From NCBI GenBank assembly GCA_002784045.1, contig PFJX01000113.1, positions 2,619 to 66,618 of the forward strand: a DNA stretch of 64,000 bases, read 5' to 3'. The translations under genes were made by a program, and so were the position numbers. The notes beneath the pieces were generated by a model, which saw only the letters and a program-made list of their open reading frames with translations, was not told the origin of the DNA and ran no database searches. Shown here in pieces: positions 39,378 through 55,904 of the stretch (position 1 is the stretch's first letter; each line of letters starts with the position of its first letter). The stretch comes from Hydrogenophilales bacterium CG_4_10_14_3_um_filter_63_21. GTDB taxonomy: Bacteria; Pseudomonadota; Gammaproteobacteria; Burkholderiales; Thiobacillaceae.

Positions 39378-39449
39378 TCCTCCTTGAGCAGATCCAACAG
39401 GATCAAAACAGGGCCGGTTGCCCTGAAAATGGGTAAAGCTATGTATTGA

Positions 39450-40101: not shown

Positions 40102-40581
40102 TCAGGGTTTCAGGTAGACAAAACCCTCTCTGGCCTGGAGCTTGCCGATTTCGGCGACACCGGAGGGCACCACCTGGGCTTCCAGGATCACGGCGCTGTC
40201 ATCCAGCTTGCGGCCCTTGAGGGTGTTGCGGCACACATCGAAAGTGACGCCGCGGTTCTTCAGGCCTGCCACTTGGGGTTCGTACAGGCCCTTGTCGTCC
40301 TTGGCCTCGTTGAGCAAGAAGTCGATGCCTTTGCCGTGGGTAACCACCACGATCTGGACGCCCGGGCTGGCATCCAGGTGGTTTTCTATATTGCGCAAAG
40401 CCATGCGTGCGACGCTGGCATCGTTGATGTGGTAGACCACTTTTTCCTGGACCGGCGCTTCTTCCACGACCGGCACGGCCGGCTTCATGTGTGTGGCGGC
40501 GGTGGCGGGGACACTGAAGCCCGCGCTTGCGGCGCCCAGTGCGAGGCTGAATAACGTGGCGCGAATCAATGAATGCTGCAT
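40102..40581 (-). CDS. Secreted DsrE/DsrF-like (COG1416-type) protein, paralogue 2
   Basis: 159 aa, signal peptide. Core VVYHINDAS...IVVVTHGKGIDFL...VTFDVCRNTLKG...VVPSGVAEIGKLQAREGFVYLKP. Confidence 0.7.
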   Translation of the reverse strand: MQHSLIRATLFSLALGAASAGFSVPATAATHMKPAVPVVEEAPVQEKVVYHINDASVARMALRNIENHLDASPGVQIVVVTHGKGIDFLLNEAKDDKGLYEPQVAGLKNRGVTFDVCRNTLKGRKLDDSAVILEAQVVPSGVAEIGKLQAREGFVYLKP

Positions 40582-40632
40582 GGTCTACTCCAAAGAGGGT
40601 TATGAGCGGGTGTTGTCAAACACCTTGCGAAT

Positions 40633-40661
40633 AAGACGGGCCGGCCTCTCTGTTTATTCCC
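40633..40661 (-). promoter_or_regulatory. Candidate ECF-type promoter GGGAATAAAC-N13-CGTCTT facing the DsrE-like/porin genes
   Basis: The minus strand reads GGGAATAAAC (40661..40652), 13 nt, CGTCTT (40638..40633). Both boxes are the same words as in the plus-strand copy. Confidence 0.5.
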
Positions 40662-40682
40662 GGATTTATTTTTCTCTTTGCA

Positions 40683-40711
40683 GGGAATAAACCGGGTGCC
40701 AGCTCCGTCTT
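40683..40711 (+). promoter_or_regulatory. Candidate autoregulated ECF-type promoter GGGAATAAAC-N13-CGTCTT facing the sigma factor gene
   Basis: GGGAATAAAC at 40683-40692, 13 nt, CGTCTT at 40706-40711. AGGAGA at 40730-40735 and TTG start at 40741. Confidence 0.5.
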
Positions 40712-40740
40712 GTTAAAACAAGGCCCACCAGGAGAAGCCT

Positions 40741-41286
40741 TTGTTGCCCTTCGTGTTCGATTTCGCCACTCGCCGCCGTCTCGAGGCCATGCGGCCCCGC
40801 TTGTACCGGCTGGCCTACGCTTGGTGCCATGACCCGCATCTGGCCGATGATCTGGCGCAGGATGCGCTGGCCAAGTCGCTCACCCGCATGGCGCAGTTGC
40901 GTGAGGCTCAGGCTCTGGAGGGCTGGCTGTTTTCGATCCTCAACAACTGTTGGCGCGATCATTTGCGTGGAGGCCGCGAGTTCGAGGACATCGCCGAGAT
41001 GGATGAGCTGATTTACTCCGGCGAGCCCGGCCCCGAGCAGCAGGTTTCCCGGCGCCAGACGCGTGACCGGGTGCGCCGCGCCATCGCCTGCCTGCCACTG
41101 GGGCAGCGCCAGGTGCTGACCCTGGTGGACATCGAGGAATGCGCCTATGCGCAAGTGGCCGGAATTCTGGAAATCCCGGTAGGCACGGTGATGAGCCGTC
41201 TCTCACGCGCGCGCCAGGCGTTGCGCGGGCTTCTGGAGAACGAGGATAAACGCGTCACGCAGACGCACCTCAGGAGGGTGAAATGA
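40741..41286 (+). CDS. ECF (group 4) sigma-70 family sigma factor
   Basis: 181 aa. Region 2 (LADDLAQDALAKSL...GWLFSILNNCWRDHLR) and region 4 (LPLGQRQVLTLVDIEECAYAQVAGILEIPVGTVMSRLSRAR). TTG start with a good SD. ATGA overlap with the next gene. Confidence 0.8.
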   Translation: MLPFVFDFATRRRLEAMRPRLYRLAYAWCHDPHLADDLAQDALAKSLTRMAQLREAQALEGWLFSILNNCWRDHLRGGREFEDIAEMDELIYSGEPGPEQQVSRRQTRDRVRRAIACLPLGQRQVLTLVDIEECAYAQVAGILEIPVGTVMSRLSRARQALRGLLENEDKRVTQTHLRRVK

Positions 41287-42014
41287 ACGAGTCAAAAAAC
41301 GAACCGGTTTCGCGCGAGCACATCAACGCTTATCTGGATGGCGAACTGGCCCTCGAGGAGCGCGAACACCTGCTAATTCGGATGGCGAGCGATCCCAACC
41401 TGCGCGCCGAAATTTGCGCCCAACGCACCCTCAAGGAACAGGTTCGCGCCGCTTATGACGACCTGCCGCGCCCCAATGCCAGCGCCACGCACCGCTACCT
41501 CAACGCGGCCTGGCGCCAATCGCTGGCGGCGGGGGTGTTGTTGGTCCTGGGCTTGAGCGGTGGCTGGTTGGCCCATGATCGTCTGGATCAATCGCCGGTA
41601 GTCGAGCGCCTAGCGGGCCTGCCCGCTGGTTTACAGCCGGTTACCCTGAGTGAACGGGTGGATACGCAACGCGTGGTTCTGCATCTCGATAGCAGCGCCC
41701 CAGAGCGCCTTTCCGCTTCACTGGATGTAGCGGAGCGTCTGGCGCGGTCACGCGGCCAGGGCCAGGTGGAGCTGGTGGTCAACAGCTTCGGACTGGACCT
41801 GCTGCGCCAGGATCGCAGCCCCGAGCGGGCGCGCATCGAGCGCCTGGCGGAACGTTATCCCAACCTGGTCTTCGTAGCCTGCGGCCAGACCGTGGCGCGC
41901 CTGCTGCGGGAAGGGCAACCAGTGGTGTTGCTGCCGGAGGCGCGCGTGGCCTCGTCCGCCATCAATGAAATCATGGCGCGACTGCGCCAGGGCTGGGTGT
42001 ACGTGAAAGTTTGA
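41283..42014 (+). CDS. Membrane anti-sigma factor with periplasmic DsrE-like domain
   Basis: 243 aa. N-terminal anti-sigma helix (HINAYLDGELALEEREHLL), one TM (LAAGVLLVLGLSGGWLA), then VVLHLDSS...VELVVNSFGLDLL...LVFVACGQTVAR...RLRQGWVYVKV, which is alignable to the two secreted paralogues. Confidence 0.7.
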   Translation: MNESKNEPVSREHINAYLDGELALEEREHLLIRMASDPNLRAEICAQRTLKEQVRAAYDDLPRPNASATHRYLNAAWRQSLAAGVLLVLGLSGGWLAHDRLDQSPVVERLAGLPAGLQPVTLSERVDTQRVVLHLDSSAPERLSASLDVAERLARSRGQGQVELVVNSFGLDLLRQDRSPERARIERLAERYPNLVFVACGQTVARLLREGQPVVLLPEARVASSAINEIMARLRQGWVYVKV

Positions 42015-43716: not shown

Positions 43717-44043
43717 ATGTTTGGCATGGTCAACATCAAGGAACTGGACGTCGATGCCCTCGACGCCAACAAGGCACAAATCCACCTGATCGACGTGCGC
43801 ACGGAAGGTGAGGTGTCGCGTGGCGTCATCGACGGGGCCATCCACATTCCGTTGCACCTGCTGCCGTTGCGCGCGACGGAAATTCCGCAGGACAAGCCGG
43901 TGGTGATCTACTGCAATTCGGGTGCCCGTTCCGCGCAAGCCTGTGCCTTCATGGCCGCCAAGGGCTTCCAAAATATGCACAATCTGTCGGGTGGCATCAT
44001 GGCCTGGGCGCGTTCCGGCAAGCCGCTCGCGGCCTTGTCCTGA
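43717..44043 (+). CDS. Single-domain rhodanese sulfurtransferase
   Basis: 108 aa with active-site loop CNSGARS. First gene of a rhd-tusA-dsrE2 arrangement. Confidence 0.8.
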   Translation: MFGMVNIKELDVDALDANKAQIHLIDVRTEGEVSRGVIDGAIHIPLHLLPLRATEIPQDKPVVIYCNSGARSAQACAFMAAKGFQNMHNLSGGIMAWARSGKPLAALS

Positions 44044-44154
44044 GCGCCTTGGGAGGGCTTGATCCAGGCCCTGGCCTCGCGTTGCAATCTCCCCACAAGC
44101 GGTATAAATTACCCCGGCTTTTTTAGCACTTGTTAATTTTCTGAAGGAACACCC

Positions 44155-44382
44155 ATGAACTTCGACAAAGAACTCGACGCCAAAGGGCTGAACTGCCCTC
44201 TGCCCATCCTTCGCTGCAAGAAGGCCCTGAACGATATGACCTCCGGCCAGATCCTGCGCGTGATCGCCACTGACCCGGGTTCCGTCAAGGACTTCGCCGC
44301 CTTTGCCAAACAGACCGGCAACGAACTCCTTACCTCCGCCGAAGCGGGTGGCGAGTACACCTTCTTCATCAAGAGGAAGTAA
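44155..44382 (+). CDS. tusA: TusA-family sulfur carrier
   Basis: 75 aa with the LDAKGLNCPLPILRCKKAL CPxP motif. Confidence 0.85.
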   Translation: MNFDKELDAKGLNCPLPILRCKKALNDMTSGQILRVIATDPGSVKDFAAFAKQTGNELLTSAEAGGEYTFFIKRK

Positions 44383-44418
44383 GCACTTCTTTCCAACAAT
44401 CGCGTTTCGAGAGGTGGT

Positions 44419-44934
44419 GTGATGGACGATACAAAGAAGCTGGCGATCATTGCGACCAAGGGCACGCTGGACTGGGCTTACCCCCCGTTCATTCTGGCGT
44501 CCACGGCCGCCGCCCTGGGTTATGAAACCCAGATTTTCTTCACCTTCTACGGCCTGCAGATGCTGCGCAAAGATCTGAGCTGCCTGAAGGTCAGCCCCCT
44601 GGGCAACCCGGGTATGCCCATGAAGATGCCGTTCGGACCGAAGTGGTTCAAGGACATCAACTGGAACATCCCCAACGCCGTGCAATCGCTGATTCCGGGC
44701 TACGAATCCCTGGCCACCACCCTGATGAAGCAAACCATCAAGAACAACGGCGTGGCAACCATCCCTGAACTGCGTGAGCTGTGCCAGGAAGCCGAAGTCA
44801 AGTTCATCGCCTGCCAGATGACGGTCGAATTGTTTGGCTTCGAACACAGCGACTTTATCGACGGCATCGAATACGGCGGCGCCGCCACCTTCTTCGAATT
44901 CGCCGGCGAGACGGACATCTGTCTGTTCATTTAA
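44419..44934 (+). CDS. dsrE2: DsrE2-like (DsrE/DsrF family) protein
   Basis: 171 aa. KLAIIATKGTLDWAYPPFILASTAAALG...FIACQMTV... follows tusA, as in described rhd-tusA-dsrE2 clusters. Confidence 0.75.
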   Translation: MMDDTKKLAIIATKGTLDWAYPPFILASTAAALGYETQIFFTFYGLQMLRKDLSCLKVSPLGNPGMPMKMPFGPKWFKDINWNIPNAVQSLIPGYESLATTLMKQTIKNNGVATIPELRELCQEAEVKFIACQMTVELFGFEHSDFIDGIEYGGAATFFEFAGETDICLFI

Positions 44935-44952: not shown

Positions 44953-44984
44953 AAAAAAGCCGCCCTAGGGCGGCTTTTTTATTT
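44953..44984 (+). terminator. Rho-independent terminator after dsrE2
   Basis: aaaaaagccgccc-ta-gggcggctttttt followed by attt. Confidence 0.8.
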
Positions 44985-44987
44985 ATA

Positions 44988-45230
44988 TCAATCGGTTACC
45001 GTGAAAATCGCCAACGACCCGTGCGGGGCGCTCCTGTAACTGGCCCTTCCAGTCGATGTTCTGGTTGGGAGGTATGTCGAATATTGCGCCAACTCGGCCA
45101 AGGCCTTATCGCCCTTGAGCGCTGCCATCGCCACTTGCGCCTTGGCTGCTGGCGAGTGGTTGCGTCGTTTCCCTTCTGCTCTTGCTCCTTTCTGGGCCTC
45201 ATACATGGCGCAGTGCGGCAAGGCTATCAC
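44988..45230 (-). pseudogene. IS3-family transposase OrfA remnant (frameshifted and truncated)
   Basis: KRRNHSPAAKAQVAMAALKGDKALAELAQ matches the conserved IS3 OrfA N-terminus. The continuation FDIPPNQNIDWKGQLQERPARV is readable only in another frame. There is no OrfB and no terminal repeats. Confidence 0.6.
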
Positions 45231-45314: not shown

Positions 45315-45364
45315 ATTCAACAATTCAACATTGTTCTTGACAACGAAAACTATAGGTATAAAAA
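45315..45364 (+). promoter_or_regulatory. Candidate promoter of the molybdoenzyme block
   Basis: AT-rich junction: 2 x 8-bp direct repeat attcaaca (45315-45330), TTGACA (45337-45342), 16 nt, TAAAAA (45359-45364). The -10 is weak. Confidence 0.3.
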
Positions 45365-45447: not shown

Positions 45448-48381
45448 ATGAATCTGCTCGACAACAGCCTGACCCGGCGGGATTTCCTCAAGGTCACCGG
45501 GAGCGTCGCGGTCATGACGCAAATCCAGCCGGCGAGCGCCCAGGAATGGCTGTCGCAAGTTGGCAAAACAGGGTCGAAGGCCGATGTGGTCGGCACCGAC
45601 GCCAAGCTCGTGCGTAGCGTCTGTCTGATGTGCCATAGCGGTTGCGGCATCCAGGGCACGATCGTCAACGGCGAGCTGGTCAAGCTCGACGGCAACCCCT
45701 ATCACCCGAACACCTACGACTATGTGTCCAAGGGTGACCTCGTCGAGGAGAGCGATCTCGACGGCGGCATCGGCGGCAAGGATGTGGGCACGTTGTGCGC
45801 GAAGGGTCAGGCGGGCGTCTATGCCCTCTACAACGCCAACCGCCTCAAGCACCCGCTGAAGCGGGTCGGCCCGCGCGGCTCCGGCAAGTGGAAAACCATC
45901 TCCTGGGAACAGGCGATGACGGAAATCGCCGAGGGCGGGATGCTGTTCAAGGACGTGCCGGGTGAAGAGACCCGGGTGGTCGAGGGGCTCAAGTCCATCC
46001 TCAGCAACGACAAGCCCATCGGGCCCGAAGATTCCGACTTCATGGACGAGGCGCCGCCCGAAGGCTATGGCCCGAAACGCAACCAGTTTGTCTGGGCGCA
46101 CGGACGCAATGAGCAGTCGCCGCTGACCCCGCGTTTCGTCAAGGAAGCGGCCGGCGTGCCGCACATGCTCAACCACTGCGACCGCTGCTCCGGCACCCTC
46201 TACAACGTGATCGAGCATTGCCTGAACGTGCCGCCTTACGAGATCGGCGCCTATGCCGATTACGAATACTGTAGTTACCTGATCAGCGTGGGTTCCAACG
46301 TCACCCACGCCGACTACCCCGGCCAGACCCGTGCACGCTACCTGCAGAAGTTCGCCAAGCGCACGGGGCCTTACGCCAAGGAGTTCAAGCATGTGGTCGT
46401 CGATCCCTGGCTCTCGCCGGCGGCGGCCAAGGCCCTGCAGTCGGGCAAGGGCGAGTGGATCCCCCTCAAACCCGCCAGCGACGCCTTCTTCCTGATCGGC
46501 ATGAACCGCTGGATGATCGACAACAAGGCCTACAAGGCGGACTACCTGGCCCTACCCAACGAGCAGGCGGCGAAGAAGACCGGTCGCCGCAACTGGACCG
46601 ACATGACCTACCTGGTCAGGACTGTGGAGCCGAAGCTCTACCTCACCGGCAAGGATGCCGGGCTGGGCCAGTCCGACTACGTGGTGCTGGTGGGCGGCAA
46701 GCCGACCCTGTTCCACGATGTGGAAGGTGCGGCGGACCTGGATGCCGAGGTCGAAATCAAGGGCGTGGTGTACAAGACGGTGTTCCGCCTGCTGCGCGAG
46801 CGCAGCCACGAGAAGACCCTCGAGGAATGCGAGCAGGAATGCGACATTCCGCCCGGGACGATTGCCCATCTGGCTCGGGAGTTCGCCAATGCCAAGCACC
46901 CGGTCATCGAGTTTGCCCGCGGCCCCATCCAGCAGAGCAACGGTTGGTGGAACGGCCAGGCGCTCATCACCTTGAACATGATGGTCGACAACATCGACCG
47001 CAAGGGCGGCTATATCCCTGGCCACAAGGCTTACGGCGGGGACGTGAAAAATCCCGTCAAGCGCTCGGCGACAGGCGTGACGATCGATCGCCACAAGTCG
47101 AAGTATCAGGGCAAGAAGACGCTCTCCACCCGGCCCTGGTATCCGTTGGCCTCGCGCACGGTGACCAGCGAGTTTTTCTCCTCCCTGCGCCAGGGCTACC
47201 CCTATCGCATCAAGGCCTACCTCAACTACTACAACGACCCGGCCTACACGCAGCCGTTCAACACGCCGGTGATCGAGGCGTTGCTGAACCTGAAGGCCAT
47301 GCCGCTCACCTTCAGCATCGACGCCAACATGGGTGAGACCAGCCAGTTGTGCGATTACGTGTTGCCGGACTCGACTTACCTGGAGCGCATCGGCGGCTTC
47401 AAGACCTATCCACCGGTCAAGACGCGCGTCGCCGGCGTGCGGATGCCGATGGTGGGCACGCTGGACCCGGTAACGAAGAACTATCGCGGCCTCTATCCGG
47501 ATGTGCAGACCGGTGACGACACCCTGATCCAGCTCGCACTGCGCTGCGGTCTGCCCGGTTTCGGCAAGGACGCCGGTGGGCCGGGGGTGGATCTCTTCAA
47601 CTCCTGGCAGTTCTGGAACGAGTATTTCAAGAACGGCGACTACAAGGGCGAGCCGGGGCTGGATCCGGACAGCCGCCTGATCAAGTTGGGCGGCAAGTTC
47701 GAGAATCCGGGCAAGCAATATGATGCCGAAGGCGTATACACGCGTTTCCCGGGCAGCCGGCAGGTACGCGGCCTGATGGCCTACGCGTCGAACGTGGCGG
47801 CCAACAAGAACAGCATGACCGGCAAGTATTTCGACGGTCTGCCGACCTACCGCGCCATCATCGACTGCAAGGAACAGCCGCTCGATCCCGCCCTGTGGCA
47901 GGAATATCCGTTCCAATTGCATACCCACAAGGACGCCTGGCACACCCAGTCGCGCACCATGGACAACCTCTGGCTGGCCTCGATCAAGCCGCAGAATTTC
48001 GCGGAAATGAATCCGGCCGATGCACAGAGGCTGGACGTCATCACCGGCGACTGGGTCAAGGTGAAGTCGCCGTCTTCCAAGCACATCCCCTTCGTGGAAC
48101 TTTCGTTGGGCGATGGCTGGTTCAAGATGCAGGTGCGCGTCACCAGCCGCATCCGCCCGGGGGTTTTCTCGGTGAACCAGGGCTATGGGCGCTGGGGGGC
48201 CGGAGGCAGGAAGTGGGATGCGGACGGCAAGTCGCAGTTCTACGACAAGCGCATCGCTGCGGGTTTCAGCATCAATCCGCTGTACATGGCCGATCCCGTT
48301 TTGGGCGACCGCGTCATGTGCGATCCGGTGGCGGGTGGCACCCAGAGCAACGGGACCCCGTTGCGCGTGGAAAAAGTCTGA
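45448..48381 (+). CDS. Tat-exported molybdopterin (Mo-bisPGD) oxidoreductase catalytic subunit, TtrA-like
   Basis: 977 aa. Twin-arginine signal LTRRDFLKV...PASA and an N-terminal FeS motif CLMCHSGCG. DGNPYHPN, IGMNRWMIDNKAYKADYLALPN, QGYPYRIKAYL and DYVLPDSTYLE resemble Salmonella TtrA as I remember it. Confidence 0.75.
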   Translation: MNLLDNSLTRRDFLKVTGSVAVMTQIQPASAQEWLSQVGKTGSKADVVGTDAKLVRSVCLMCHSGCGIQGTIVNGELVKLDGNPYHPNTYDYVSKGDLVEESDLDGGIGGKDVGTLCAKGQAGVYALYNANRLKHPLKRVGPRGSGKWKTISWEQAMTEIAEGGMLFKDVPGEETRVVEGLKSILSNDKPIGPEDSDFMDEAPPEGYGPKRNQFVWAHGRNEQSPLTPRFVKEAAGVPHMLNHCDRCSGTLYNVIEHCLNVPPYEIGAYADYEYCSYLISVGSNVTHADYPGQTRARYLQKFAKRTGPYAKEFKHVVVDPWLSPAAAKALQSGKGEWIPLKPASDAFFLIGMNRWMIDNKAYKADYLALPNEQAAKKTGRRNWTDMTYLVRTVEPKLYLTGKDAGLGQSDYVVLVGGKPTLFHDVEGAADLDAEVEIKGVVYKTVFRLLRERSHEKTLEECEQECDIPPGTIAHLAREFANAKHPVIEFARGPIQQSNGWWNGQALITLNMMVDNIDRKGGYIPGHKAYGGDVKNPVKRSATGVTIDRHKSKYQGKKTLSTRPWYPLASRTVTSEFFSSLRQGYPYRIKAYLNYYNDPAYTQPFNTPVIEALLNLKAMPLTFSIDANMGETSQLCDYVLPDSTYLERIGGFKTYPPVKTRVAGVRMPMVGTLDPVTKNYRGLYPDVQTGDDTLIQLALRCGLPGFGKDAGGPGVDLFNSWQFWNEYFKNGDYKGEPGLDPDSRLIKLGGKFENPGKQYDAEGVYTRFPGSRQVRGLMAYASNVAANKNSMTGKYFDGLPTYRAIIDCKEQPLDPALWQEYPFQLHTHKDAWHTQSRTMDNLWLASIKPQNFAEMNPADAQRLDVITGDWVKVKSPSSKHIPFVELSLGDGWFKMQVRVTSRIRPGVFSVNQGYGRWGAGGRKWDADGKSQFYDKRIAAGFSINPLYMADPVLGDRVMCDPVAGGTQSNGTPLRVEKV

Positions 48382-48391
48382 GGAGACCGTC

Positions 48392-49009
48392 ATGACTGAA
48401 TACAGCCCCATACTCCCCCGCGAAGCCGTCGAGCGGTCGTTCGCCAAACAGGGTCCGAAGCAGTACACGCTCTGGGTGGACATCGAGCACTGCATCGGCT
48501 GCAACGCCTGCACCATTGCCTGCAAAGCGGAAAACAACACGCCTATCGGTGTGGATTACAACCGCGTCATCGAGATCGAGGAAGGCGACTTCCGCGATGC
48601 GAAGAAGAAACCCGACATCGGTGTGACCTTCGTGCCCATGCCCTGCATGCACTGCGGCCGGCCGGCCTGCCAGGCGGCCTGCCCGGTGGGGGCGATCACC
48701 AAGCGAGAAGACGGCATCGTCCTCATCAACAAGGACAAATGCATCGGTTGCCGCTACTGCGCCTGGGCCTGCCCATACGGCGCGCCCCAGTTCAACGCCG
48801 AGGCCAAGGTGATGGAGAAATGCACGCTTTGTGTCCATCGCGTCGAGAAGGGCCTGCAACCCGCCTGCGTGACGACCTGTCCGGCCAAGGTGAGGTTCTT
48901 CGGCGAGCTGAACGAGCTCACCCCGCTCATCCGCGAGCGTCGCGCGCGTAGCGTGAACATCGCCGTCGTCGGGACCGACACCAAGCCCAGCGTGCAATAC
49001 ACCAAGTAA
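48392..49009 (+). CDS. Four-cluster 4Fe-4S electron-transfer subunit (TtrB/PsrB/DmsB type)
   Basis: ORF 48185..49009 trimmed to ATG 48392 (GAGGAG upstream). Motifs CIGCNACTIACK, CMHCGRPACQAACP, CIGCRYCAWACP and CTLC...CVTTCP. Confidence 0.85.
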   Translation: MTEYSPILPREAVERSFAKQGPKQYTLWVDIEHCIGCNACTIACKAENNTPIGVDYNRVIEIEEGDFRDAKKKPDIGVTFVPMPCMHCGRPACQAACPVGAITKREDGIVLINKDKCIGCRYCAWACPYGAPQFNAEAKVMEKCTLCVHRVEKGLQPACVTTCPAKVRFFGELNELTPLIRERRARSVNIAVVGTDTKPSVQYTK

Positions 49010-49024
49010 GCACCAAGTAAGCAC
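48999..49024. repeat. 2.4 x 11-bp tandem repeat (caccaagtaag) spanning the FeS-subunit stop codon
   Basis: Copies at 48999-49009 and 49010-49020 plus a partial copy at 49021-49024. The TAA stop (49007-49009) lies in copy 1. Confidence 0.9.
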
Positions 49025-49182
49025 CCCTTCGGGGGATGCGAGGCGGCGGGAGATATCAACTCCCGCCGGTTCGTGTCTTCCCTGGGACGAGCCATGAGTA
49101 CGTTGCTGTTTCATGCAACGGGGCGGCGCGATAGGCGCCATGTCGAGTTACATGTTGTTTCAACGCCAGGACCGCCGAGGAT

Positions 49183-50370
49183 ATGAACAGCTTGATGGAA
49201 TTTCGCGATGAGGCGCCGGTGCGGGTGGAAAGCACGCTGTGCGCCCGTTTCCGCAGTACCAAGTCGAAGTGCGCGGCATGCGCCCTGGTGTGCCCCGTGC
49301 CCGGCGCCATCCACCTGGATGAGGATGGCGCGGAAGTCAAGGCAGCCTGCGTGGGCTGCGGCGCCTGTGCCTCGGCCTGCCCGAACGGCGCGATCCGACC
49401 GCGCCAGGAAGATGACATCCGGCTGGATGACGGGCGATTCACCGCGCGCATCCGTGAACGGGTTCGCGCCGGGGCGACGTTCCGTTTCGCCTGCGACATG
49501 GCGCAAGGCCAGGCGGATATGGTCTTGCCCTGTCTCTCCCGCCTGACCGAGGCACTGGTCCTGGAACCGCTCCGGGGAGGCGCTGAGCGGGTCGAGCTGA
49601 TGGCCCCGGACTGCGCGGCCTGCGGGCTCAGAAAGGCGGCCCCCCAGTGGCAGAAGGTCATGGATTTTTCCCGCGCGCTGTGCGAGACGGCGGGGCTGGA
49701 GGCGACTCGCGTGGAAAGCGTGCGGGTGCCCAGCGGGAAGGCGGTGGAAACGCGTCCTCCGGAAAAAGCCGGTGGCTCGCGCCGGGCGATGTTCCGCTCC
49801 ATGGCCGAGCGTTGGGAGGCGAGCGGAACGGCCCCGGACGCGACGGCCGAAGCTGCCGAGCCCACGCCTCCGGAAGCCTTCCGGGACATCGTGCAGCGGC
49901 ATTCGGACAACCCCAAGCGGGTCGCTCTGCTGGACGTGCTGGACGCGCTGCCCGGCGTGAAGCCCGTGCCGAGTGTGGCCACCTCGGTCGTCCTCGCCGA
50001 CGGAATACCGCTGGCGCAACTGGAGGTGGATCACCGCTGCGTGGGTTGCAGCGTGTGCGAAACGCTTTGTCCGGTTGGCGCCCTCAAACACCGGGACGAG
50101 GGCGAGACCTATGTGCTGGAGCTGGATGCCGCGCGCTGCACCGGTTGCCGCGTGTGCGAGGTGGTCTGCTATCACCAGGCCATCCATCTGCGCGATACGG
50201 TGGACCTCGCGCTGCTGTTCGAGCGTCCCCGCGTCACCCTGGTGTCCGCCACCAAGCGAACCTGTAGCGCCTGCCGCGAGCCATTCCTGGGCGCTGCCTC
50301 CGAATTCTGTCCTGCCTGCCGCTTGAGCGGCGATCGTCGTGAAACGATCGCCCGGCGCTTTTTCCTCTGA
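49183..50370 (+). CDS. Cytoplasmic polyferredoxin-like protein with C-terminal Cys4 motif
   Basis: 395 aa with no signal peptide. Motifs CAACALVCP, CVGCGACASACP, CVGCSVCETLCP and CTGCRVCEVVC, and a C-terminal CSAC...CPAC. The central region is low-complexity and Ala/Glu/Pro-rich. Confidence 0.7.
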   Translation: MNSLMEFRDEAPVRVESTLCARFRSTKSKCAACALVCPVPGAIHLDEDGAEVKAACVGCGACASACPNGAIRPRQEDDIRLDDGRFTARIRERVRAGATFRFACDMAQGQADMVLPCLSRLTEALVLEPLRGGAERVELMAPDCAACGLRKAAPQWQKVMDFSRALCETAGLEATRVESVRVPSGKAVETRPPEKAGGSRRAMFRSMAERWEASGTAPDATAEAAEPTPPEAFRDIVQRHSDNPKRVALLDVLDALPGVKPVPSVATSVVLADGIPLAQLEVDHRCVGCSVCETLCPVGALKHRDEGETYVLELDAARCTGCRVCEVVCYHQAIHLRDTVDLALLFERPRVTLVSATKRTCSACREPFLGAASEFCPACRLSGDRRETIARRFFL

Positions 50371-50380
50371 GGGAACCCGA

Positions 50381-51073
50381 ATGATGCCTGCCGAAGAAAT
50401 GCAAAACATCGCCGCCGGGCGCGCGCATACCTATTCCATCCTGGCCATGCTCTATGCCGCCCCGCCGACGGCGGAGTTGGCGGCCATGGTGCGCGCGGGC
50501 GGTCTCGCGCCGGAAGGGGGAAGCGCCCTGAGCGCGGCCGCCGACGCCCTGACGGAAGCCTTCCGCAACGACGCGGCGCAAGGGCTGCCCGACAGCGACC
50601 TGGTCGCCGAGCATACCCGGCTCTTCGTCCTGCCTTCCGGCGTGGTGCCCCATGAGTCTTATTACCTGGACGACAGCCATCGCCTGGGCGGGCACGCCAC
50701 CGTCGCTGTGCAGCGTTACTACGAGGCGGCGGGCACGCAAACGACCAGCACCTGCCTGGAGCTTGCGGATCACATGGGCGTGGAACTGGAGTTCATGAAG
50801 TTTCTTTGCGATATCGAGCGGCAGTTCTGGCAGGAGCCGAACCCGGAGGGTTTACAGCGCTGCCTGGACTTCCAGGCCGGTTTTCTCGACGGCCACCTGT
50901 TGCGCTGGCACAAAACCCTGTGCGAGCGGGTGCAGGGCGACACCAGCCTGGACATCTACCGCGCGCTGGCCCGCCTCACCCTGGAGTTCCTGGAAGCCGA
51001 GCGTACTTTTGTGCCTGATTTGACCGAGTCAATCCGTTCCGAATGGAGGACAGCATGCGTATCCGAATCGTGA
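50381..51073 (+). CDS. TorD/DmsD/NarJ-family redox enzyme maturation chaperone
   Basis: ORF 50339..51073; ATG 50381. EHTRLFV...HESYY...DHMGVELEFMKFL is typical of the TorD family. Confidence 0.75.
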   Translation: MMPAEEMQNIAAGRAHTYSILAMLYAAPPTAELAAMVRAGGLAPEGGSALSAAADALTEAFRNDAAQGLPDSDLVAEHTRLFVLPSGVVPHESYYLDDSHRLGGHATVAVQRYYEAAGTQTTSTCLELADHMGVELEFMKFLCDIERQFWQEPNPEGLQRCLDFQAGFLDGHLLRWHKTLCERVQGDTSLDIYRALARLTLEFLEAERTFVPDLTESIRSEWRTACVSES

Positions 51074-51618
51074 CCCTTTTGTCTTTGATGCTCGCCTCGA
51101 CGGCCGCTCTGGCCTTCGAAGCCCAGACCCCCGTGCCCTGGCCACCCAAGGCGGTTCCCAACCCGGAGAAGGGCGAGGTTCCCGATGCCAGAGCCGAGAA
51201 CAAGGTCTGCATGGGCTGCCACAAGAAAATCCTGTATGTGAAGACCGTGCGCGACAAGAAAAGGCCGAACCTGCACCGCCTGCACCTGACTTCCAAGAAA
51301 ACCGCCTTTGGCGGGGCGAACCTTTACTGCGCCACCTGCCACGAGACGGTTACTCCCGCGGAAGGCAAGGCGGCCAGGAAAGAAGGCTGGTTCATCCCCG
51401 CCAAGAGCGAAGTCCCGCATCCGGATGGGATGTTGGCCCCCGCCGGGGTCTGGAAAAAGACCGTCGTGCGCGCCGGGGAAGGCACCCGCTACGACCGTGT
51501 CGACACCCTGCTGCAATCCGATCCGCATCCCTTCAAGCCGACCCTCGGACGGCTGGTGTGCGCGGACTGCCATGGCCCGGAGAGCGGCATCAAGACGTTT
51601 TACGGCGCGCCCCAGTGA
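51043..51618 (+). CDS. Periplasmic trihaem c-type cytochrome
   Basis: 191 aa (or a start at ATG 51055, MRIRIVTLLSLMLASTAALA signal peptide). Three CxxCH motifs: CMGCH, CATCH and CADCH. Confidence 0.8.
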   Translation: MEDSMRIRIVTLLSLMLASTAALAFEAQTPVPWPPKAVPNPEKGEVPDARAENKVCMGCHKKILYVKTVRDKKRPNLHRLHLTSKKTAFGGANLYCATCHETVTPAEGKAARKEGWFIPAKSEVPHPDGMLAPAGVWKKTVVRAGEGTRYDRVDTLLQSDPHPFKPTLGRLVCADCHGPESGIKTFYGAPQ

Positions 51619-51654
51619 GGCACGACTGGCTGCGGCAAGCATAGGAACGAGTTC

Positions 51655-53466
51655 ATGAAGAACCACCCCCCTCATCCCCGCAAGGCGCTCGGACTGGTCT
51701 TGGCCGGCATCCTGCTCGGCGGCCTCTCCGGCCCGTGGGCACAAGCCGCTGCGGCGGCCCCGCCCTCGTATGAGGCGGAGATACTGCGCAGATTGCAGGA
51801 ACTGGAAAGCCAGGTTGCCCAGTACCGAACCGAGACCGCGCGCTTGCAGGCGGAACTCGCCAGGCGGGAAAGCGGCCAGGCGGCCCTGCCGCTTACCGCC
51901 GCCGTGCCGTCGCCCCAGGGCAAACCCGCCGCCGCCGATGAATGGGGTGAGCCCGAGGTCGTCAAGAAGGCGGAAGGGCGCGACGAGGAAGCCCGTCGCC
52001 GGCTGACTGCGCTGGAGACCCAGTACCGCAAGACCGCCGCCGAGGCTGCCAAGCAGGATGAGGCGCAAAGAGACAAGGTCAAGTACGACTTTTCCGCCAA
52101 ATTCAAGACCCGGGTCAATGTTCGCGACAACTTCAACCTGGACAACCCGGCTCAGGCCTGGAAATACGATAACGCGACCTTCGTCGATTACCGCTTCCAA
52201 CTGGGCATCGAGGCTTCCTACGATCAGTTTCTCGCCAAGTTTTTGCTCGACAAGGGCAACTTCGTGTTCGACTGGAAGGAAGACGGCGAAGGCACGCTGG
52301 AGCGCTGGGGGCAGTTCCAGACCGTCAACTCCGCCATGGTGCGTGAACTCTATGCGCAGTACACGGGGTCGTTCATGGTGCGTCTCGGTCGCCAGAACTG
52401 GGAGGGCGATATCGTCCTGCAAGGCCCGATGGATTCGATCCGCCTCCAGTACCCCTTCGGACAACTGCCCTGGGGGCAGACCACGCTGACGGCCGGTTAC
52501 CTCGCGGTTTCCGGCGGCTGGCCCAACTACACGGGTTTCAAAGCTTCCGGCGGTCCGCCCGCCGGCGACCGCGGTGCCTTGCTGGGCGCCTACAACGACC
52601 TCGACGCTTATTATCTCGACCTGGACATCCGCGCTTCGAAGGCGCTGCGCATCAAGCCCTATCTCATCAAGGTGATCGACAACGGCAATGCCGGCAGCGC
52701 CGACCTGAACCTGGACAAGGACTTCGACGACACCACCATGCGCCGCGACGGCGGTTTCGAACCGCTCTGGACCGGGCTTACCGCGAGCGCCGAGTTCAAG
52801 GGGCTGAAACTGGATGCCGAGGCGGTCTGGCTGACCGGGGATGTCGCCAGGGGCCGCAAGGTCGACGCCCATGCCTTCCTGGTCCAGGCCAACCGCGATT
52901 TCGGCCCGGTGGCGTCCCTGAAGAGCCTCTCCGCCGGGTTGCAATTCGGCCTGGGCTCCGGCAACGGCACGCGCGATAACTCCGGTCTCGGCACGGGGAC
53001 GCTGAGCAACTTCAACGGCCTGTCGCTCTGCCGCGACCGGAACAAGTTCGGCAATATCTTCAGCGAGGACATCCGCGCCGGCTATTTCCTGTGGGACAGC
53101 AACCTGTCCAACATCACCTATGTGCGTCTGGATGCCACCCTGGAACCGGTCAAGAGCCTGCGTCTGACGCCCTCGATCAGCCGCATCTGGACCACCGAAC
53201 CGGTGTTCGCCGGCGCCGGTCCGGTGTTCGACTGGAGCAGGGGTTTCAACTTCGCGATCACCAACCCGACCACGGCCAGCACGACGCGCACGACCAACGA
53301 TGTGGGCTGGGAGATCGACCTGGACGTGACTTATCCGCTGTTCAAGAACCTGGACAGCTTCCTTTCATTGGGTTATTTCCGGCCCGGCGCGGTCTATGCC
53401 CGGCCCGACGGCAGCAACCCCAAGGCCGCCTACGAAATCGTCCTCGGCGGCGAGTTCAAGTTCTGA
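51655..53466 (+). CDS. Outer-membrane beta-barrel protein with N-terminal coiled coil
   Basis: 603 aa. Signal peptide, about 100 aa of heptad-like Glu/Arg/Ala/Gln-rich helix (EAEILRRLQELESQVAQYRTETARLQAELARRE), then an alternating beta-strand pattern ending ...VLGGEFKF. Confidence 0.7.
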   Translation: MKNHPPHPRKALGLVLAGILLGGLSGPWAQAAAAAPPSYEAEILRRLQELESQVAQYRTETARLQAELARRESGQAALPLTAAVPSPQGKPAAADEWGEPEVVKKAEGRDEEARRRLTALETQYRKTAAEAAKQDEAQRDKVKYDFSAKFKTRVNVRDNFNLDNPAQAWKYDNATFVDYRFQLGIEASYDQFLAKFLLDKGNFVFDWKEDGEGTLERWGQFQTVNSAMVRELYAQYTGSFMVRLGRQNWEGDIVLQGPMDSIRLQYPFGQLPWGQTTLTAGYLAVSGGWPNYTGFKASGGPPAGDRGALLGAYNDLDAYYLDLDIRASKALRIKPYLIKVIDNGNAGSADLNLDKDFDDTTMRRDGGFEPLWTGLTASAEFKGLKLDAEAVWLTGDVARGRKVDAHAFLVQANRDFGPVASLKSLSAGLQFGLGSGNGTRDNSGLGTGTLSNFNGLSLCRDRNKFGNIFSEDIRAGYFLWDSNLSNITYVRLDATLEPVKSLRLTPSISRIWTTEPVFAGAGPVFDWSRGFNFAITNPTTASTTRTTNDVGWEIDLDVTYPLFKNLDSFLSLGYFRPGAVYARPDGSNPKAAYEIVLGGEFKF

Positions 53467-53468
53467 CC

Positions 53469-53825
53469 ATGAACAAGATCGCCCGCACCCTCATCCTGAT
53501 CGCCGGCATGGCGGCGGCCTTCGCCACCCCGCCGGCAGCGTGGTCCGAGGACATGCCTTACCTGAACGTCTTCACCGAGCGCCTGTGCACCCTGCGGCCG
53601 CCGCCGGTATTTGCCTTCCGGGCGGAGGCCACCGGCCTGACACCGCCCCTGAAATTCCACTGGGATCTCGGCAACGAACAAGTATGGGAAGGCCAGCATG
53701 TGCCGGAGCAGGCCTACGATTTCGGCCGCTACAACGTGATTCTGAGCGTGACGGATGCCACCGGGCGGACCCGGCGGGCGAGCCTGACGATCGACGCGAG
53801 TGCGCCCGGCTGCGGTGGAATTTGA
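53469..53825 (+). CDS. Secreted PKD-domain protein
   Basis: ORF 53091..53825 trimmed to ATG 53469 (MNKIARTLILIAGMAAAFA). PKD signature WDLGNEQ...YDFGRYNVILSVTDATGRT. Ends ...SAPGCGGI. Confidence 0.65.
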   Translation: MNKIARTLILIAGMAAAFATPPAAWSEDMPYLNVFTERLCTLRPPPVFAFRAEATGLTPPLKFHWDLGNEQVWEGQHVPEQAYDFGRYNVILSVTDATGRTRRASLTIDASAPGCGGI

Positions 53826-53852
53826 AATTCATTACTTTGGAACGAAACCCTC

Positions 53853-54803
53853 ATGAAACTTGAAAACTTTGCAAAATGCATGGCAATCGCGGCCTTGCTG
53901 GTGTGCCACCCCATCGCTTGGGCCGACGAGGAATCGAGCGTGCGCCTGACCCAGAGCGATGGCGCCGTCGAGATCGTCAAGGCGGGCGCGGCGGCCGGGT
54001 CACCCGCCCGCGAGGGCGCGGTCCTCGAACGGGGCGACCGCCTGGTCACCCGCGACAAGTCCGCCGCGCTGCTGCTGTGGTCCAATGGCAGCATGGTCAA
54101 GCTCTATCCCAACACCGAAATCGTGCTGGCGGGTGTCTCCTTCGATCTGGAAAAGAAGATGGAAATGACCTTGCTGGACCTGGAGAAAGGGCGCCTCTTC
54201 GTCAAGGCGCAAGTCCCGGAACACCTGTTCTCCGAATTCAAGGTGCGCATGGGCGGGCAGGAGCTGCGCACCCAGGGGGCCGAGTTTGCCCTTGCCCATG
54301 ACGCGGAGAAGAAAAGCTTCAAGGCGCTGTCCCTGAGTGGTCGTCTGGTGATGGACCTGGGCACCACTCGCCTCAGGATCGACGACGGCCAGCAGGCCGC
54401 GGCCAACATCGGCGGCAAGTTGACCCAGGACGACATCAAGCCCATGGAAGACAAGACCCGGCAATCCCTGGCCAAGGTCTCCAAGGACCTGGGCGGCAGC
54501 CTGCTCATGGAAGAGACCGTCGGCGCCACCGGCGGGAAGCTTGTCATCAAGATCGGCGGCGTGGCCAACCGGCGCGGCAGCACACCGTACAAGGTGAATT
54601 TCAAGGCCCTGGTCAAGGGCGGCAGCGGCAAGCTCAAATCCGTCACCTGGGACTTCGGCGACGGCGAGTCCGCCGCCGGCAGGGAGGCGGAGCACACCTT
54701 CACCCAGGGCCTGTACGTGGTCATCCTGCGGGCCGAGGACGAAAACGGCGACAAGGCCTCCGCCCAGACCGGCATCTCGGTGGAGGCGGACTGTGGCTGC
54801 TGA
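53853..54803 (+). CDS. Secreted FecR-domain protein with C-terminal PKD domain
   Basis: 316 aa with a signal peptide ending AWA. FecR-like beta-sandwich region (GDRLVTRDKSAALLLWSNGSMVKLYPNTEI), then WDFGDGESAAGREAEHTFTQGLYVVILRAEDENGD. Ends ...EADCGC. Confidence 0.6.
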   Translation: MKLENFAKCMAIAALLVCHPIAWADEESSVRLTQSDGAVEIVKAGAAAGSPAREGAVLERGDRLVTRDKSAALLLWSNGSMVKLYPNTEIVLAGVSFDLEKKMEMTLLDLEKGRLFVKAQVPEHLFSEFKVRMGGQELRTQGAEFALAHDAEKKSFKALSLSGRLVMDLGTTRLRIDDGQQAAANIGGKLTQDDIKPMEDKTRQSLAKVSKDLGGSLLMEETVGATGGKLVIKIGGVANRRGSTPYKVNFKALVKGGSGKLKSVTWDFGDGESAAGREAEHTFTQGLYVVILRAEDENGDKASAQTGISVEADCGC

Positions 54804-54830: not shown

Positions 54831-55802
54831 ATGCTGACGGATGGTTGTGGACGCCGCGTGGATTACTTGAGGCTATCGGTCACGGATCGCTGTGATCTGC
54901 GCTGCTCGTATTGCATGCCGACGGGGTTCAAGGATTACGAGGAACCCGCGCATTGGCTGAGCTTCGACCAGATCGAGCGTCTGCTGTCCGTCTTTGCCCG
55001 CCTGGGGATGCGCCGAATCCGGCTGACCGGCGGCGAACCCCTGCTGCGCAACAACCTGACCGAGCTGGCCCGCCGGCTCGCCGCGCTGCCGGGTGTGGAG
55101 GACCTGTCCCTGTCCACCAACGGCACCCAGTTGGCTAAATACGCATCCCGATTGAAGGCAGCGGGGGTCACGCGGCTGAACGTCAGCCTGGACTCCCTGG
55201 ACCGCCGGCGGGTCCGCGCCATCACCAAGCGGGATGTCCTGCCCCAGGTGCTCGATGGCCTCGAAGCCGCGCGGGCGGCGGGCTTCTCGCTCATCAAGGT
55301 CAACATGGTGGCGCTGGCCGGCACGACCGACGCCGACATCGAAAACATGGTGGCCTACTGCATGGAACGGGGCTTCGTGCTGCGCCTGATCGAGACCATG
55401 CCGGTGGGCGCGACCGGCCGCGATGCGGGCTACCTGGATCTGCGCCCGGTGCGGGAGCGGCTGCGCGCGCGCTTCGGGCTGGTGGACGGCGTGGTGCCGG
55501 GCGGCGGCCCCGCCCGCTATCTGGTCGCTCCAGACGGGGGCTTCCAGATCGGCTTCATCACGCCGATCTCGCAGCACTTCTGCGCAACCTGCAATCGGGT
55601 GCGCCTGTCGGTGGACGGCCGGATGTTCCTGTGCCTGGGCCAGGATAACGCGGTGGATTTCCGCCGCCTGCTGTTGGACGGTGGCGACGACGCGGCCATC
55701 GAGCGGGCCTTGCTGGACGGGCTGCGCGCCAAGCCGGCGCGCCACGAGTTCAACCAACAACCGGACCGGATCGTGCGATTCATGTCCATGACCGGGGGGT
55801 AG
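54831..55802 (+). CDS. moaA: GTP 3',8-cyclase MoaA (radical SAM)
   Basis: 323 aa with YLRLSVTDRCDLRCSYCMP and the C-terminal cluster CATCNRVRLSVDGRMFLC. Confidence 0.9.
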   Translation: MLTDGCGRRVDYLRLSVTDRCDLRCSYCMPTGFKDYEEPAHWLSFDQIERLLSVFARLGMRRIRLTGGEPLLRNNLTELARRLAALPGVEDLSLSTNGTQLAKYASRLKAAGVTRLNVSLDSLDRRRVRAITKRDVLPQVLDGLEAARAAGFSLIKVNMVALAGTTDADIENMVAYCMERGFVLRLIETMPVGATGRDAGYLDLRPVRERLRARFGLVDGVVPGGGPARYLVAPDGGFQIGFITPISQHFCATCNRVRLSVDGRMFLCLGQDNAVDFRRLLLDGGDDAAIERALLDGLRAKPARHEFNQQPDRIVRFMSMTGG

Positions 55803-55904
55803 CGAAATGCCGTGCTTACGACGATCAAGGGCTGGGGAAATTCCGGTCGGCAGCGGCCGCGATGAAGCGGAAGTCGGACTTTGGGAAACACTTTGGAGAA
55901 GATC

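Follow-up and report, generated by a model that had tools for sequence, protein, structure and literature searches.

Is an enzyme that resembles tetrathionate reductase, yet is encoded beside neither the membrane anchor nor the regulators of that system, a tetrathionate reductase at all? The question is raised by a gene cluster in a 64-kb stretch of contig PFJX01000113.1 (the whole of which we call the window), from a Hydrogenophilales metagenome-assembled genome (MAG) of the Crystal Geyser series. The initial annotation had described the products of the first two genes, the catalytic subunit A (PIX96566.1) and its iron-sulfur (FeS) partner B, as a TtrAB-like reductase that lacks TtrC and TtrRS and is wired to a triheme cytochrome c. 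On balance, we lean toward reading the cluster as a cytochrome-linked, soluble AB respiratory module that forms a clade of its own and most likely acts on a sulfur species.

All five open reading frames (ORFs) of that annotation are present on the + strand. A begins with MNLLDNSLTRRDFLK and carries the twin-arginine translocation (Tat) motif LTRRDFLK, and it matches the Pfam families Molybdop_Fe4S4, Molybdopterin and Molydop_binding above their cut-offs, which bears out its description as a 977-residue Tat-dependent subunit. The FS0 cysteines (C59/C62/C66/C117) are invariant among relatives. C247, the predicted molybdenum ligand, aligns with a Cys column common to TtrA, to a second molybdoenzyme encoded in the window (A2, below) and to all relatives but one. 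By its domains, FS0 motif and Cys column, A is assigned to the Cys-ligated, chalcophile branch of the Mo/W-bis(pyranopterin guanine dinucleotide) (bisPGD) superfamily, also known as the dimethyl sulfoxide reductase or complex iron-sulfur molybdoenzyme superfamily.

The resemblance to TtrA that had been noted in the initial annotation is real. Our reference was a Salmonella-type ttrA product, named by the Prokaryotic Genome Annotation Pipeline (PGAP), from a plasmid record. BLASTP aligned A with this protein over the full length at 27% identity (E = 4e-93), and all four motif blocks singled out earlier find their counterparts: GNPYHP is identical, RWMIDNKAYKADYLALPN pairs with SWIIDKQRYNADYLAIPG, QGYPYRIKAYL with EGYPYPLKAWI, and DYVLPDSTYLE with DYIVPDTHNFE. 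TtrA is also the best NCBIfam match of A (NF011567 equivalog, 339 bits, E = 4.8e-101), followed by PhsA (184 bits), ArrA (79 bits; cut-off 1600) and the arsenite oxidase large subunit (15 bits). This homology, together with the sulfur metabolism of the hosts, could mean that the cluster encodes a true tetrathionate reductase in which TtrC has been swapped for cytochromes, and which forms thiosulfate from tetrathionate or, in the opposite direction, acts as a thiosulfate dehydrogenase. The adjoining PhsA-like A2 would then complete a Salmonella-style pair of Ttr and Phs enzymes.

We consider a true tetrathionate reductase quite unlikely, however. The score of A falls five-fold below the equivalog cut-off of 1750 bits, the identity to TtrA is low, and the residues around the Mo-ligand Cys differ. 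The A clade reads N-H-C-[D/S/E]-R-C-[A/S]-G at this column, with H243, C244, R246 and C247 invariant, as compared to H-G-A-Y-C in TtrA and H-T-S-I-C-E in a large neighboring group. In a collection of 5.8 billion proteins, A sits in a tight group of 63-93% identity, after which identity falls sharply to about 41%. A neighbor-joining tree of 43 sequences, which was rooted on A2 and is rough in topology because it carries no bootstraps, recovered the window clade as monophyletic, with unnamed proteins of 38-43% identity as its sister group; the genuine TtrA proteins of Salmonella and Pseudomonas lie on a different branch, among other unnamed proteins. The regulators found near relatives of A are likewise unrelated to TtrS and TtrR. 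In the oxidative direction, the thiosulfate/tetrathionate couple is too positive for quinone reduction through the c554/NapC module. Finally, the TtrA/SrdA/alternative Arr family is catalytically versatile and has changed substrate several times (PMC10100899). Together, these comparisons indicate that A is TtrA-like without being a TtrA orthologue and belongs to its own clade, and on the evidence of score, tree position and active-site motif the "TtrAB" label does not stand. Wells et al. noted an apparently novel lineage sister to TtrA, SrdA and alternative Arr in trees that included MAGs (PMC10100899), and this lineage may be the A clade. A full-text literature search returned no paper on the cluster itself; the nearest were that remark and the papers on the MOLY cluster discussed below.

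How does this enzyme exchange electrons? B, previously described as a four-cluster FeS partner, has 16 cysteines in four ferredoxin-type motifs. In NCBIfam it comes nearest to DmsB, at 177 bits for a cut-off of 214, and to TtrB, at 144 bits for a cut-off of 416. Because B has neither a signal peptide nor a transmembrane segment, it is presumably exported bound to A. The polyferredoxin, TorD-type chaperone and secreted cytochrome that had been reported to follow B are all there. The polyferredoxin has no signal peptide, which fits its predicted cytoplasmic location, and contains three canonical CxxCxxCxxxC motifs, further cysteines and a weakly FlpD/MvhD-like middle region; we infer that it is a NapF-like factor for maturation or electron supply. 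The cytochrome has exactly three CxxCH motifs, at residues 56, 96 and 173. Its relatives take two forms, one with three hemes and 170-215 residues, as here, and one with two hemes and 305-357 residues, found at loci with an NrfCD-type module (below). Both share hemes 2 and 3 and a C-terminal block, LVCxxCH...K.FYG. The family is small, with 19 representatives at E <= 1e-3 among 1.84 billion clusters of 50% identity.

The absence of TtrC and TtrRS was confirmed over a wider range. Using tblastn, we found no match at E <= 1 in the 64-kb window for TtrC, a Pseudomonas NrfD, a DmsC-type protein, the NrfD proteins of two relatives, NapC/NirT, c554, TtrS or TtrR. An NrfD-family hidden Markov model gave no match at E <= 10 in the six-frame translation of the window, and contigs with the same genes, which reach 8 kb further downstream, add no such membrane subunit or regulator.

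We then compared the locus with its relatives. A scan of one genome per species gave about 50 loci in which A is at least 64% identical, spread over about eight phyla and mostly in MAGs from aquifers and sediments. The hosts include Rhodocyclales, Sulfuritalea, Sulfurisoma and Rhodoferax, Muproteobacteria, Nitrospirota (Thermodesulfovibrionia), Desulfobacterota, Methylomirabilota (Rokubacteria), Planctomycetota, Armatimonadota and Lindowbacteria, and the only cultured strains among them are Sedimenticola selenatireducens DSM 17993 and S. hydrogenitrophicus SB48. Gene order was counted by tblastn, with the window proteins and additional proteins of the relatives as queries, at the 36 non-redundant loci that have enough flanking sequence; the proteobacterial ones among these belong to Beta- and Gammaproteobacteria. 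A, B, the polyferredoxin and TorD are encoded at all 36, and at every one the cytochrome gene directly follows that of TorD. A secreted protein with FecR-like and PKD domains is also present at 36/36 loci, and an AlgE-like outer-membrane protein at 35/36. These counts support the view that the cytochrome is a dedicated, conserved electron partner of AB. They also show that the cluster as first delimited is only the first half of the conserved unit, because the FecR-PKD protein and the channel belong to it almost without fail.

Genes for a link to the quinone pool were found within 10 kb of the cluster at most of these loci, in two arrangements. At 11 of the 36, a tetraheme cytochrome, a Tat-exported FeS protein and an NrfD-family protein are encoded directly upstream of A (NrfCD-type loci). 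At 13, a c554-like cytochrome and a NapC/NirT homologue are encoded downstream of the FecR-PKD gene; three loci have the c554-like cytochrome alone, and nine have neither module. The FeS protein of the NrfCD-type module (307 residues) is DsrO/NrfC-like (194 bits) and its membrane protein passes the DsrP model (417 bits; cut-off 350), but the DsrO-type labels are loose because the NCBIfam DsrO model also names TtrB-like proteins on enterobacterial plasmids. In the other module, the tetraheme c554-like cytochrome matches the Nitrosomonas CycA model at 285 bits, and the score of the NapC/NirT homologue is 294 bits. NapC/NirT and NrfCD proteins are usually quinol dehydrogenases, and a c554 plus NapC-type pair is the quinone-reducing module of ammonia oxidizers (the hydroxylamine oxidoreductase-c554-cM552 pathway). 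The nine loci with neither module include the window and come from several phyla. At one of them, where A is 84% identical, a pyruvate kinase gene directly follows the core cluster, which contains no other electron-transfer gene.

Nowhere in the clade is AB arranged as an ABC complex with its own anchor. The proposal of a soluble AB enzyme wired to cytochrome c is thus supported: A has a Tat signal, B has no signal, neither subunit has a transmembrane segment, and the c-type cytochrome is encoded at every locus. The further claim that no membrane quinol dehydrogenase serves the enzyme holds for this locus and fails for the family, since 24/36 relatives encode a separate module, although never a TtrC anchor. 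The absence of membrane module and regulators is particular to this and a minority of other loci, and the comparison supports a picture in which different lineages plug a soluble, cytochrome-served AB into different quinone modules, or into none.

The following path would account for these features. A and B would form a soluble periplasmic Mo-bisPGD/FeS heterodimer. Its maturation in the cytoplasm would rely on the TorD-like chaperone and probably also on the polyferredoxin, and its export on the Tat signal of A. With no NrfD-type anchor, AB would swap electrons with its own small secreted multiheme cytochrome, in whichever direction the reaction runs. In most relatives, this cytochrome would connect to the quinone pool through the c554-like and NapC/NirT proteins or through the tetraheme cytochrome with NrfC-like and NrfD-like proteins. 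Because the quinone link is encoded separately, the layout resembles Nrf, Nap and ArrAB-CymA rather than Ttr. At the window locus, which has neither quinone module nor sensor, the triheme cytochrome would have to use the general periplasmic cytochrome pool or a module encoded elsewhere.

Known systems share parts of this layout. With TtrBCA/TtrSR of Salmonella enterica, the cluster shares the domain order, FS0 motif, Cys Mo-ligand column and sequence blocks of the catalytic subunit and a homologous B; in contrast, the window has no TtrC, TtrS or TtrR, its B lacks a Tat signal of its own, and the cluster adds the polyferredoxin, the cytochrome, the outer-membrane channel and a FecR-PKD protein ending in Cys-x-Cys (CxC). 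ArrAB-CymA of Shewanella sp. ANA-3 and NapAB-NapC likewise have a catalytic subunit that is exported by Tat and works with a small redox partner but without an NrfD anchor, and use a separate tetraheme quinol dehydrogenase of the NapC/NirT family, as 13/36 relatives may do; they differ in the catalytic clade, the cluster has additional two- or three-heme and c554-like cytochromes in the path, and NapC/NirT is not encoded in the window. The cytochrome, Tat FeS protein and NrfD-family protein of the Nitrospirota and Desulfobacterota relatives recall NrfABCD and the DsrJOP portion of DsrMKJOP, in that they form a quinone module of their own that would serve a soluble periplasmic enzyme by way of cytochromes. 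Here, however, the terminal enzyme is a Mo-bisPGD AB dimer and not NrfA or DsrAB/DsrC, the cytochrome of the relatives' module has four hemes and does not reach the DsrJ or NrfB cut-offs, and the window lacks the module. As a set, the fixed accessory genes for the cytochrome, polyferredoxin, channel and FecR-PKD-CxC protein are described for no known system.

The features of the locus are listed in Table 1.

Table 1. Features of the A cluster and its flanks (positions in the window).
Feature	Position	Strand	Evidence
rhodanese-tusA-dsrE2, cytoplasmic sulfur-relay genes directly upstream of the A cluster	43717-44934	+	
Intrinsic terminator after rhodanese-tusA-dsrE2	44953-44980		13-bp stem, 6 G-C pairs
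A, catalytic Mo-bisPGD subunit, 977 aa	45448-48381	+	ORF, Pfam, NCBIfam
B, four-cluster FeS subunit, 205 aa	48392-49009	+	16 Cys, cluster motifs
Polyferredoxin, 395 aa, 25 Cys, predicted cytoplasmic	49183-50370	+	Cys motifs
TorD/NarJ-family chaperone (redox enzyme maturation protein) for A	50381-51073	+	PF02613, E 2.5e-23
Secreted triheme cytochrome c, 191 aa	51043-51618	+	CxxCH motifs, Sec signal peptide
Outer-membrane beta-barrel, Alginate_exp/AlgE-like, 603 aa	51655-53466	+	PF13372, E 2.8e-10
Small secreted PKD-domain protein, 118 aa, ends ...APGCGGI	53469-53825	+	ORF, C-terminus
Secreted FecR-like + PKD protein, 316 aa, ends ...SVEADCGC	53853-54803	+	Pfam, AlphaFold2, Foldseek
MoaA, radical-SAM enzyme of molybdenum cofactor biosynthesis	54831-55802	+	
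A2, second Tat-exported Mo-bisPGD subunit, ~800 aa, PsrA/PhsA-like	55893-58298	+	
B2, four-cluster FeS protein, 177 aa	58347-58880	+	
TorD2, second TorD-like chaperone	58942-59550	+	
MMPL/HAE3-type transporter of the resistance-nodulation-division (RND) type	59575-61971	+	
LolA-like/TP_0789-like periplasmic protein	62141-62929	+	

All genes from A through the LolA-like gene share the + strand, and no gap between them exceeds 173 nt. The sole strong terminator-like site is the one upstream of A, and the rhodanese-tusA-dsrE2 genes before it are probably context rather than part of the A operon. Weak stems of 5-8 bp also occur within the cluster (21 sites, compared to 13.9 expected from shuffled sequence). 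By gene content and conservation, the core of the putative respiratory module runs from A through the FecR-PKD gene (45448-54803), and the module probably extends to about 62929. The end originally set at 51618 was therefore too early, as the outer-membrane channel, MoaA, a further molybdoenzyme with no anchor and the FecR-PKD-CxC protein are encoded beyond it. Two candidate features upstream of A were discarded. An 80-aa ORF at 44988-45230 (- strand) was considered as the remnant of an insertion sequence that might have caused regulator loss; it has no Pfam match and, in tblastn against plasmids, one weak unannotated match, which leaves this idea unsupported. A TTGACA hexamer at 45337-45342 was considered as part of a sigma-70 promoter, but its spacing to AT-rich hexamers is off and a consensus scan lists no site on the + strand. 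No match to a molybdenum cofactor riboswitch or another Rfam family was found at the loci of five relatives.

The closest relatives of the window locus (L001, in which A is 93% identical, and L015) carry AioXSR-like sensor and regulator genes together with c554 and NapC/NirT genes, none of which are present here, and the window cluster might accordingly be pictured as a decaying remnant that has lost its sensor and quinone module. This picture is highly improbable, because all cluster ORFs are intact, the genes are under purifying selection and the same arrangement is seen on matching contigs. Ratios of nonsynonymous to synonymous substitution rates (dN/dS) against L001 range over 0.08-0.29: they are 0.085 for A, 0.076 for B, and 0.22-0.29 for the cytochrome, polyferredoxin, TorD, outer-membrane protein and FecR-PKD protein. 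An identical MMPL protein is encoded on 23 contigs from several samples, and the gene order from polyferredoxin to MMPL is the same in the three places shown. Moreover, the nine of 36 loci without either quinone module belong to different phyla. The window copy is thus likely to be functional. In the same comparison with L001, dS of A is 0.42, whereas the downstream accessory genes reach more than twice this value (0.94-1.25), and dS of B (0.82) lies just under their range. The low dS of A suggests either that A was exchanged recently or that codon usage is under stronger constraint in A and B.

What do the channel and the FecR-PKD protein contribute? The outer-membrane protein has a signal peptide and an N-terminal coiled-coil-like stretch. 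The FecR-PKD protein ends in ...IS(V/A)E-x-x-C-x-C-COOH, and these are the sole conserved cysteines of the mature protein in 40/41 distinct sequences. An AlphaFold2 model with a predicted local distance difference test (pLDDT) score of 80 has a FecR-like beta domain joined by a linker to a PKD beta-sandwich, with residues 312-316 as an unstructured tail. Foldseek matched the model to PKD domains and to the C-terminal cell-surface-signaling domain of the FecR homologue PupR, which was crystallized with an outer-membrane transducer domain. The family has 244 members at E <= 1e-5 among the 5.8 billion proteins, none of them annotated, and we found no precedent for a C-terminal CxC on a FecR-PKD protein. 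The small PKD protein has a GCGG(I) end at proteobacterial loci; it is absent from many loci and lacks Cys at the NrfCD-type ones.

By analogy with known systems, we infer that the channel and the Cys-tipped protein handle substrate or product, so that the AlgE-like channel and the FecR-PKD protein would bring in and present the substrate, or remove it. The analogy is with SoxYZ and SoxCD, where an Ig-like beta-sandwich also carries a flexible Cys tail (CxC-COOH or GCGG(I) here, GGCGG-COOH in SoxY) and is encoded beside a periplasmic molybdoenzyme and a c-type cytochrome. There is no homology to SoxY, however, as Pfam finds PKD and FecR domains only; the tail has two cysteines rather than one, and the enzyme is of the bisPGD rather than the sulfite oxidase family. 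A bolder extension, which we consider doubtful, would make the FecR-PKD protein a periplasmic substrate carrier of a new kind for the HCxRC molybdoenzyme. Its FecR-like domain would dock on the AlgE-like channel, and its flexible Cys-x-Cys end would covalently capture the incoming species as a persulfide or trisulfide (from S0 or polysulfide), a thiosulfonate (from polythionates), or a dithiolate of As(III) or Se(IV). The HCxRC enzyme would then oxidize or reduce the bound species, and the electrons would leave through the private cytochrome. If true, this would be a bisPGD counterpart of SoxYZ/SoxCD or DsrC-trisulfide chemistry that is widespread in aquifer bacteria and undescribed.

The genes around the cluster bear on the substrate. 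A2, B2 and TorD2 form a second set with no membrane anchor. A2 recurs beside the A cluster at seven loci of both quinone-module types (72-86% identity), and its nearest named relatives, at 41-45% identity, come from Desulfohalobiaceae and Desulfovulcanus. The MMPL/LolA-like pair recurs near the cluster at eight loci, including Sedimenticola. On a matching contig (L092 13343-17233), the genes beyond the end of the window encode a Wzi-like outer-membrane protein, a FadL/TodX channel and a 291-aa protein, followed by unrelated genes; the MMPL, LolA-like, Wzi-like and FadL/TodX proteins together look like a system for trafficking hydrophobic compounds. Sulfur-relay genes lie upstream of A both here and at another locus (dsrE2-tusA, L023), rhodanese genes are found near the cluster at nine or more further loci, and the Sedimenticola clusters adjoin genes for an ArsR-rhodanese fusion regulator, a DedA-rhodanese fusion and a DsrE-like protein. 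Upstream of one further locus (L002) are YeeE and GcvH-like genes. The identifiable hosts are all sulfur oxidizers, sulfate reducers or sulfur disproportionators (PMC11279179).

Because of these sulfur-relay neighbors and sulfur-metabolizing hosts, an inorganic sulfur species (polysulfide or S0, a polythionate or thiosulfate) is the most likely class of substrate, with a chance that we put a little short of even; within it, tetrathionate takes the small share given to the Ttr alternative above. Arsenic or antimony is an unlikely class, selenium an improbable one, and something else makes up the remainder. These weights are our judgement and were not computed. A parallel for a sulfur substrate is the MOLY cluster (MolyA-MolyB-MolyC), which has been proposed to act in elemental-sulfur disproportionation (PMC9676032, PMC12998232). 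It likewise pairs an anchorless A with a small FeS B and a TorD-like chaperone, a layout (compared as such, not as orthology) shared by A-B-TorD and approached more closely in size by A2-B2-TorD2, and porin and RND-type genes are associated with it in the published comparison. In contrast, the description of MOLY includes no cytochrome, polyferredoxin or FecR-PKD protein.

The regulators of the relatives point in another direction. At 25/36 loci, a periplasmic PhnD-family binding protein and/or an AtoC-type sigma-54 response regulator is encoded beside the cluster, usually with a histidine kinase; the window has none of these. The proteobacterial binding protein, which adjoins the cluster at 17 loci (15 non-redundant), is far nearer to AioX (PDB 6esv, E = 1e-50) and ArrX (E = 8e-38) than to PhnD and PtxB (about 1e-13). 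The arsenite pocket of AioX consists of Y88, C106, Y131, S161, S163, H192 and D210 (PMC5908839), and the proteobacterial proteins keep five of these seven residues (Y88, C106, Y131, S161 and H192) and have S163T and D210S. Most proteobacterial loci also have a sigma-54-like element (e.g. CTGGCCCGGTTTGTGC) 240-420 nt upstream of A and a GTTAC-N6-7-GTAAC palindrome 60-100 nt upstream of A, in a presumed long leader. The pair occurs at 13 loci, among them L001 (at about 8050 and 8260); neither element was found in the window. The periplasmic domain of TtrS has no similarity to either type of binding protein.

Taken at face value, these regulators would make the enzyme a third kind of arsenic or antimony oxyanion oxidoreductase, an arsenite oxidase or an arsenate reductase according to host, that is controlled by an AioXSR-like system and whose CxC protein chelates As(III). 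The kinase and AtoC-type regulator, with the sigma-54-like promoters, fit the AioS/AioR layout and recall AioXSR/ArxXSR. CxC is the As(III)-binding motif of ArsR, and soluble ArrAB with CymA is a precedent for an AB enzyme served by a NapC/NirT-type cytochrome. The TtrA family itself holds alternative arsenate reductases (PMC10100899). Still, we regard an arsenic or antimony enzyme as unlikely. Asp210 is replaced even in the AioX-like proteins, and at NrfCD-type loci, where A is 65-70% identical to the window protein, the binding protein is PtxB/PhnD-like (nearest PtxB, E = 1e-24) with Gly for the pocket Cys and Ile for Asp210. No clade member has ars genes within 10 kb, the ArrA model gives A a low score, and the controlled enzyme is neither Aio nor Arx/Arr. 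The AioX link is thus a real lead to arsenic or antimony, although one that, as far as the sequences go, does not hold across the clade.

Two other groups of TtrA-like proteins came to light beside arsenic genes. A distant group (L076 and L082-L084; 32-33% identity), from Methylomirabilota and related MAGs, is flanked by arsA/arsD/arsR/arsC-type genes. The AioX-like binding proteins of L082-L084 keep all seven pocket residues, with Ser at 163 where the others have Thr; none was recovered for L076. This group is a good candidate for an "alternative arsenate reductase" or a new arsenite oxidase. In addition, Citrobacter arsenatis plasmid NZ_CP037863.1 (5118-10513) encodes a TtrB-like protein, a membrane protein and a TtrA-like protein of about 1008 residues between two ars groups. 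Sets of this type occur on IncF plasmids of Citrobacter, Enterobacter, Salmonella and E. coli, and PGAP names them "molybdopterin-dependent oxidoreductase", with the FeS subunit as "DsrO".

Selenium offers another reading. A (TtrA/SrdA-like) and A2 (PsrA/SrrA-like) could act successively as a respiratory reductase of selenate and selenite, with the CxC protein, the channel and the MMPL/LolA/FadL proteins handling Se(0). Of the two cultured strains with the cluster, one is S. selenatireducens; aquifers are the source of many MAGs that carry it, and vicinal thiols bind Se(IV). SrdA belongs to the TtrA family and SrrA to the Psr/Phs family (PMC10100899). We nevertheless find this improbable: a SerABDC-like cluster of S. 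selenatireducens is already assigned to selenate reduction (PMC5052931), S. hydrogenitrophicus is described as limited to nitrate, N2O and O2 as acceptors (PMC11279179), neither Sedimenticola locus encodes A2, and there is no direct selenium-specific gene context.

Returning to the cytochrome-linked module with a sulfur substrate, several points weigh against it. The sulfur context is circumstantial, as these hosts carry sulfur genes throughout their genomes. The sensor of the proteobacterial relatives uses a close AioX homologue that keeps the arsenite-binding Cys and so points to arsenic or antimony, and the cultured carriers include a selenate respirer (PMC5052931). The roles given to the CxC protein and the channel are assigned by analogy. 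Gene content, homology, conservation and purifying selection are read directly from the sequences, and topology, electron path, accessory roles, substrate and direction are predictions. The AlphaFold2 model of A, built on a 15-sequence alignment, has a pLDDT of 40, and the active site is not readable from it.

Some features elsewhere in the window were also noted. The stretch at 37983-42014 holds genes for a phosphate-porin-like outer-membrane protein, two secreted proteins of the DsrE family (39450-39896 and 40102-40581, - strand), an extracytoplasmic function (ECF) sigma factor (40741-41286) and a putative anti-sigma protein of 243 residues, whose C-terminal part resembles the secreted DsrE-like proteins by eye and has no Pfam match. 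This stretch may be a sulfur-responsive extracytoplasmic signaling unit. A secreted protein of 276 residues (27278-28108, - strand) has degenerate repeats (DPNxYMKWM / NPxxY...W) and a Pro/Ala-rich tail and belongs to no Pfam family. Further genes encode an NnrS heme-copper membrane protein (10986-12224), a SulP/STAS transporter of the sulfate permease family (13589-15496, - strand) and an RnfC homologue (20113-22185, - strand) with probable rnf neighbors at about 15.9-22.9 kb, all of which form a general background of respiration and sulfur uptake. No bc1, cbb3 or other cytochrome genes were seen among the window ORFs examined, part of which were covered by the Pfam scan.

Mo-bisPGD enzymes of the Ttr/Psr/Arr branch drive the cycling of sulfur, arsenic and selenium. 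Metagenome surveys routinely call TtrA-like matches "tetrathionate reductase", and members of the A clade would receive this label, yet they fail Ttr-specific tests. The clade further illustrates how one catalytic dimer may be plugged into NapC/c554, into NrfCD or into no quinone module, depending on lineage. Because two cultured Sedimenticola strains carry the cluster, its function is a directly testable question. By its gene content and hosts, the cluster points to a sulfur (or selenium or arsenic) redox step in groundwater bacteria, and identification of the substrate would add a reaction to subsurface element cycling and correct the annotation of the MAGs that encode it.

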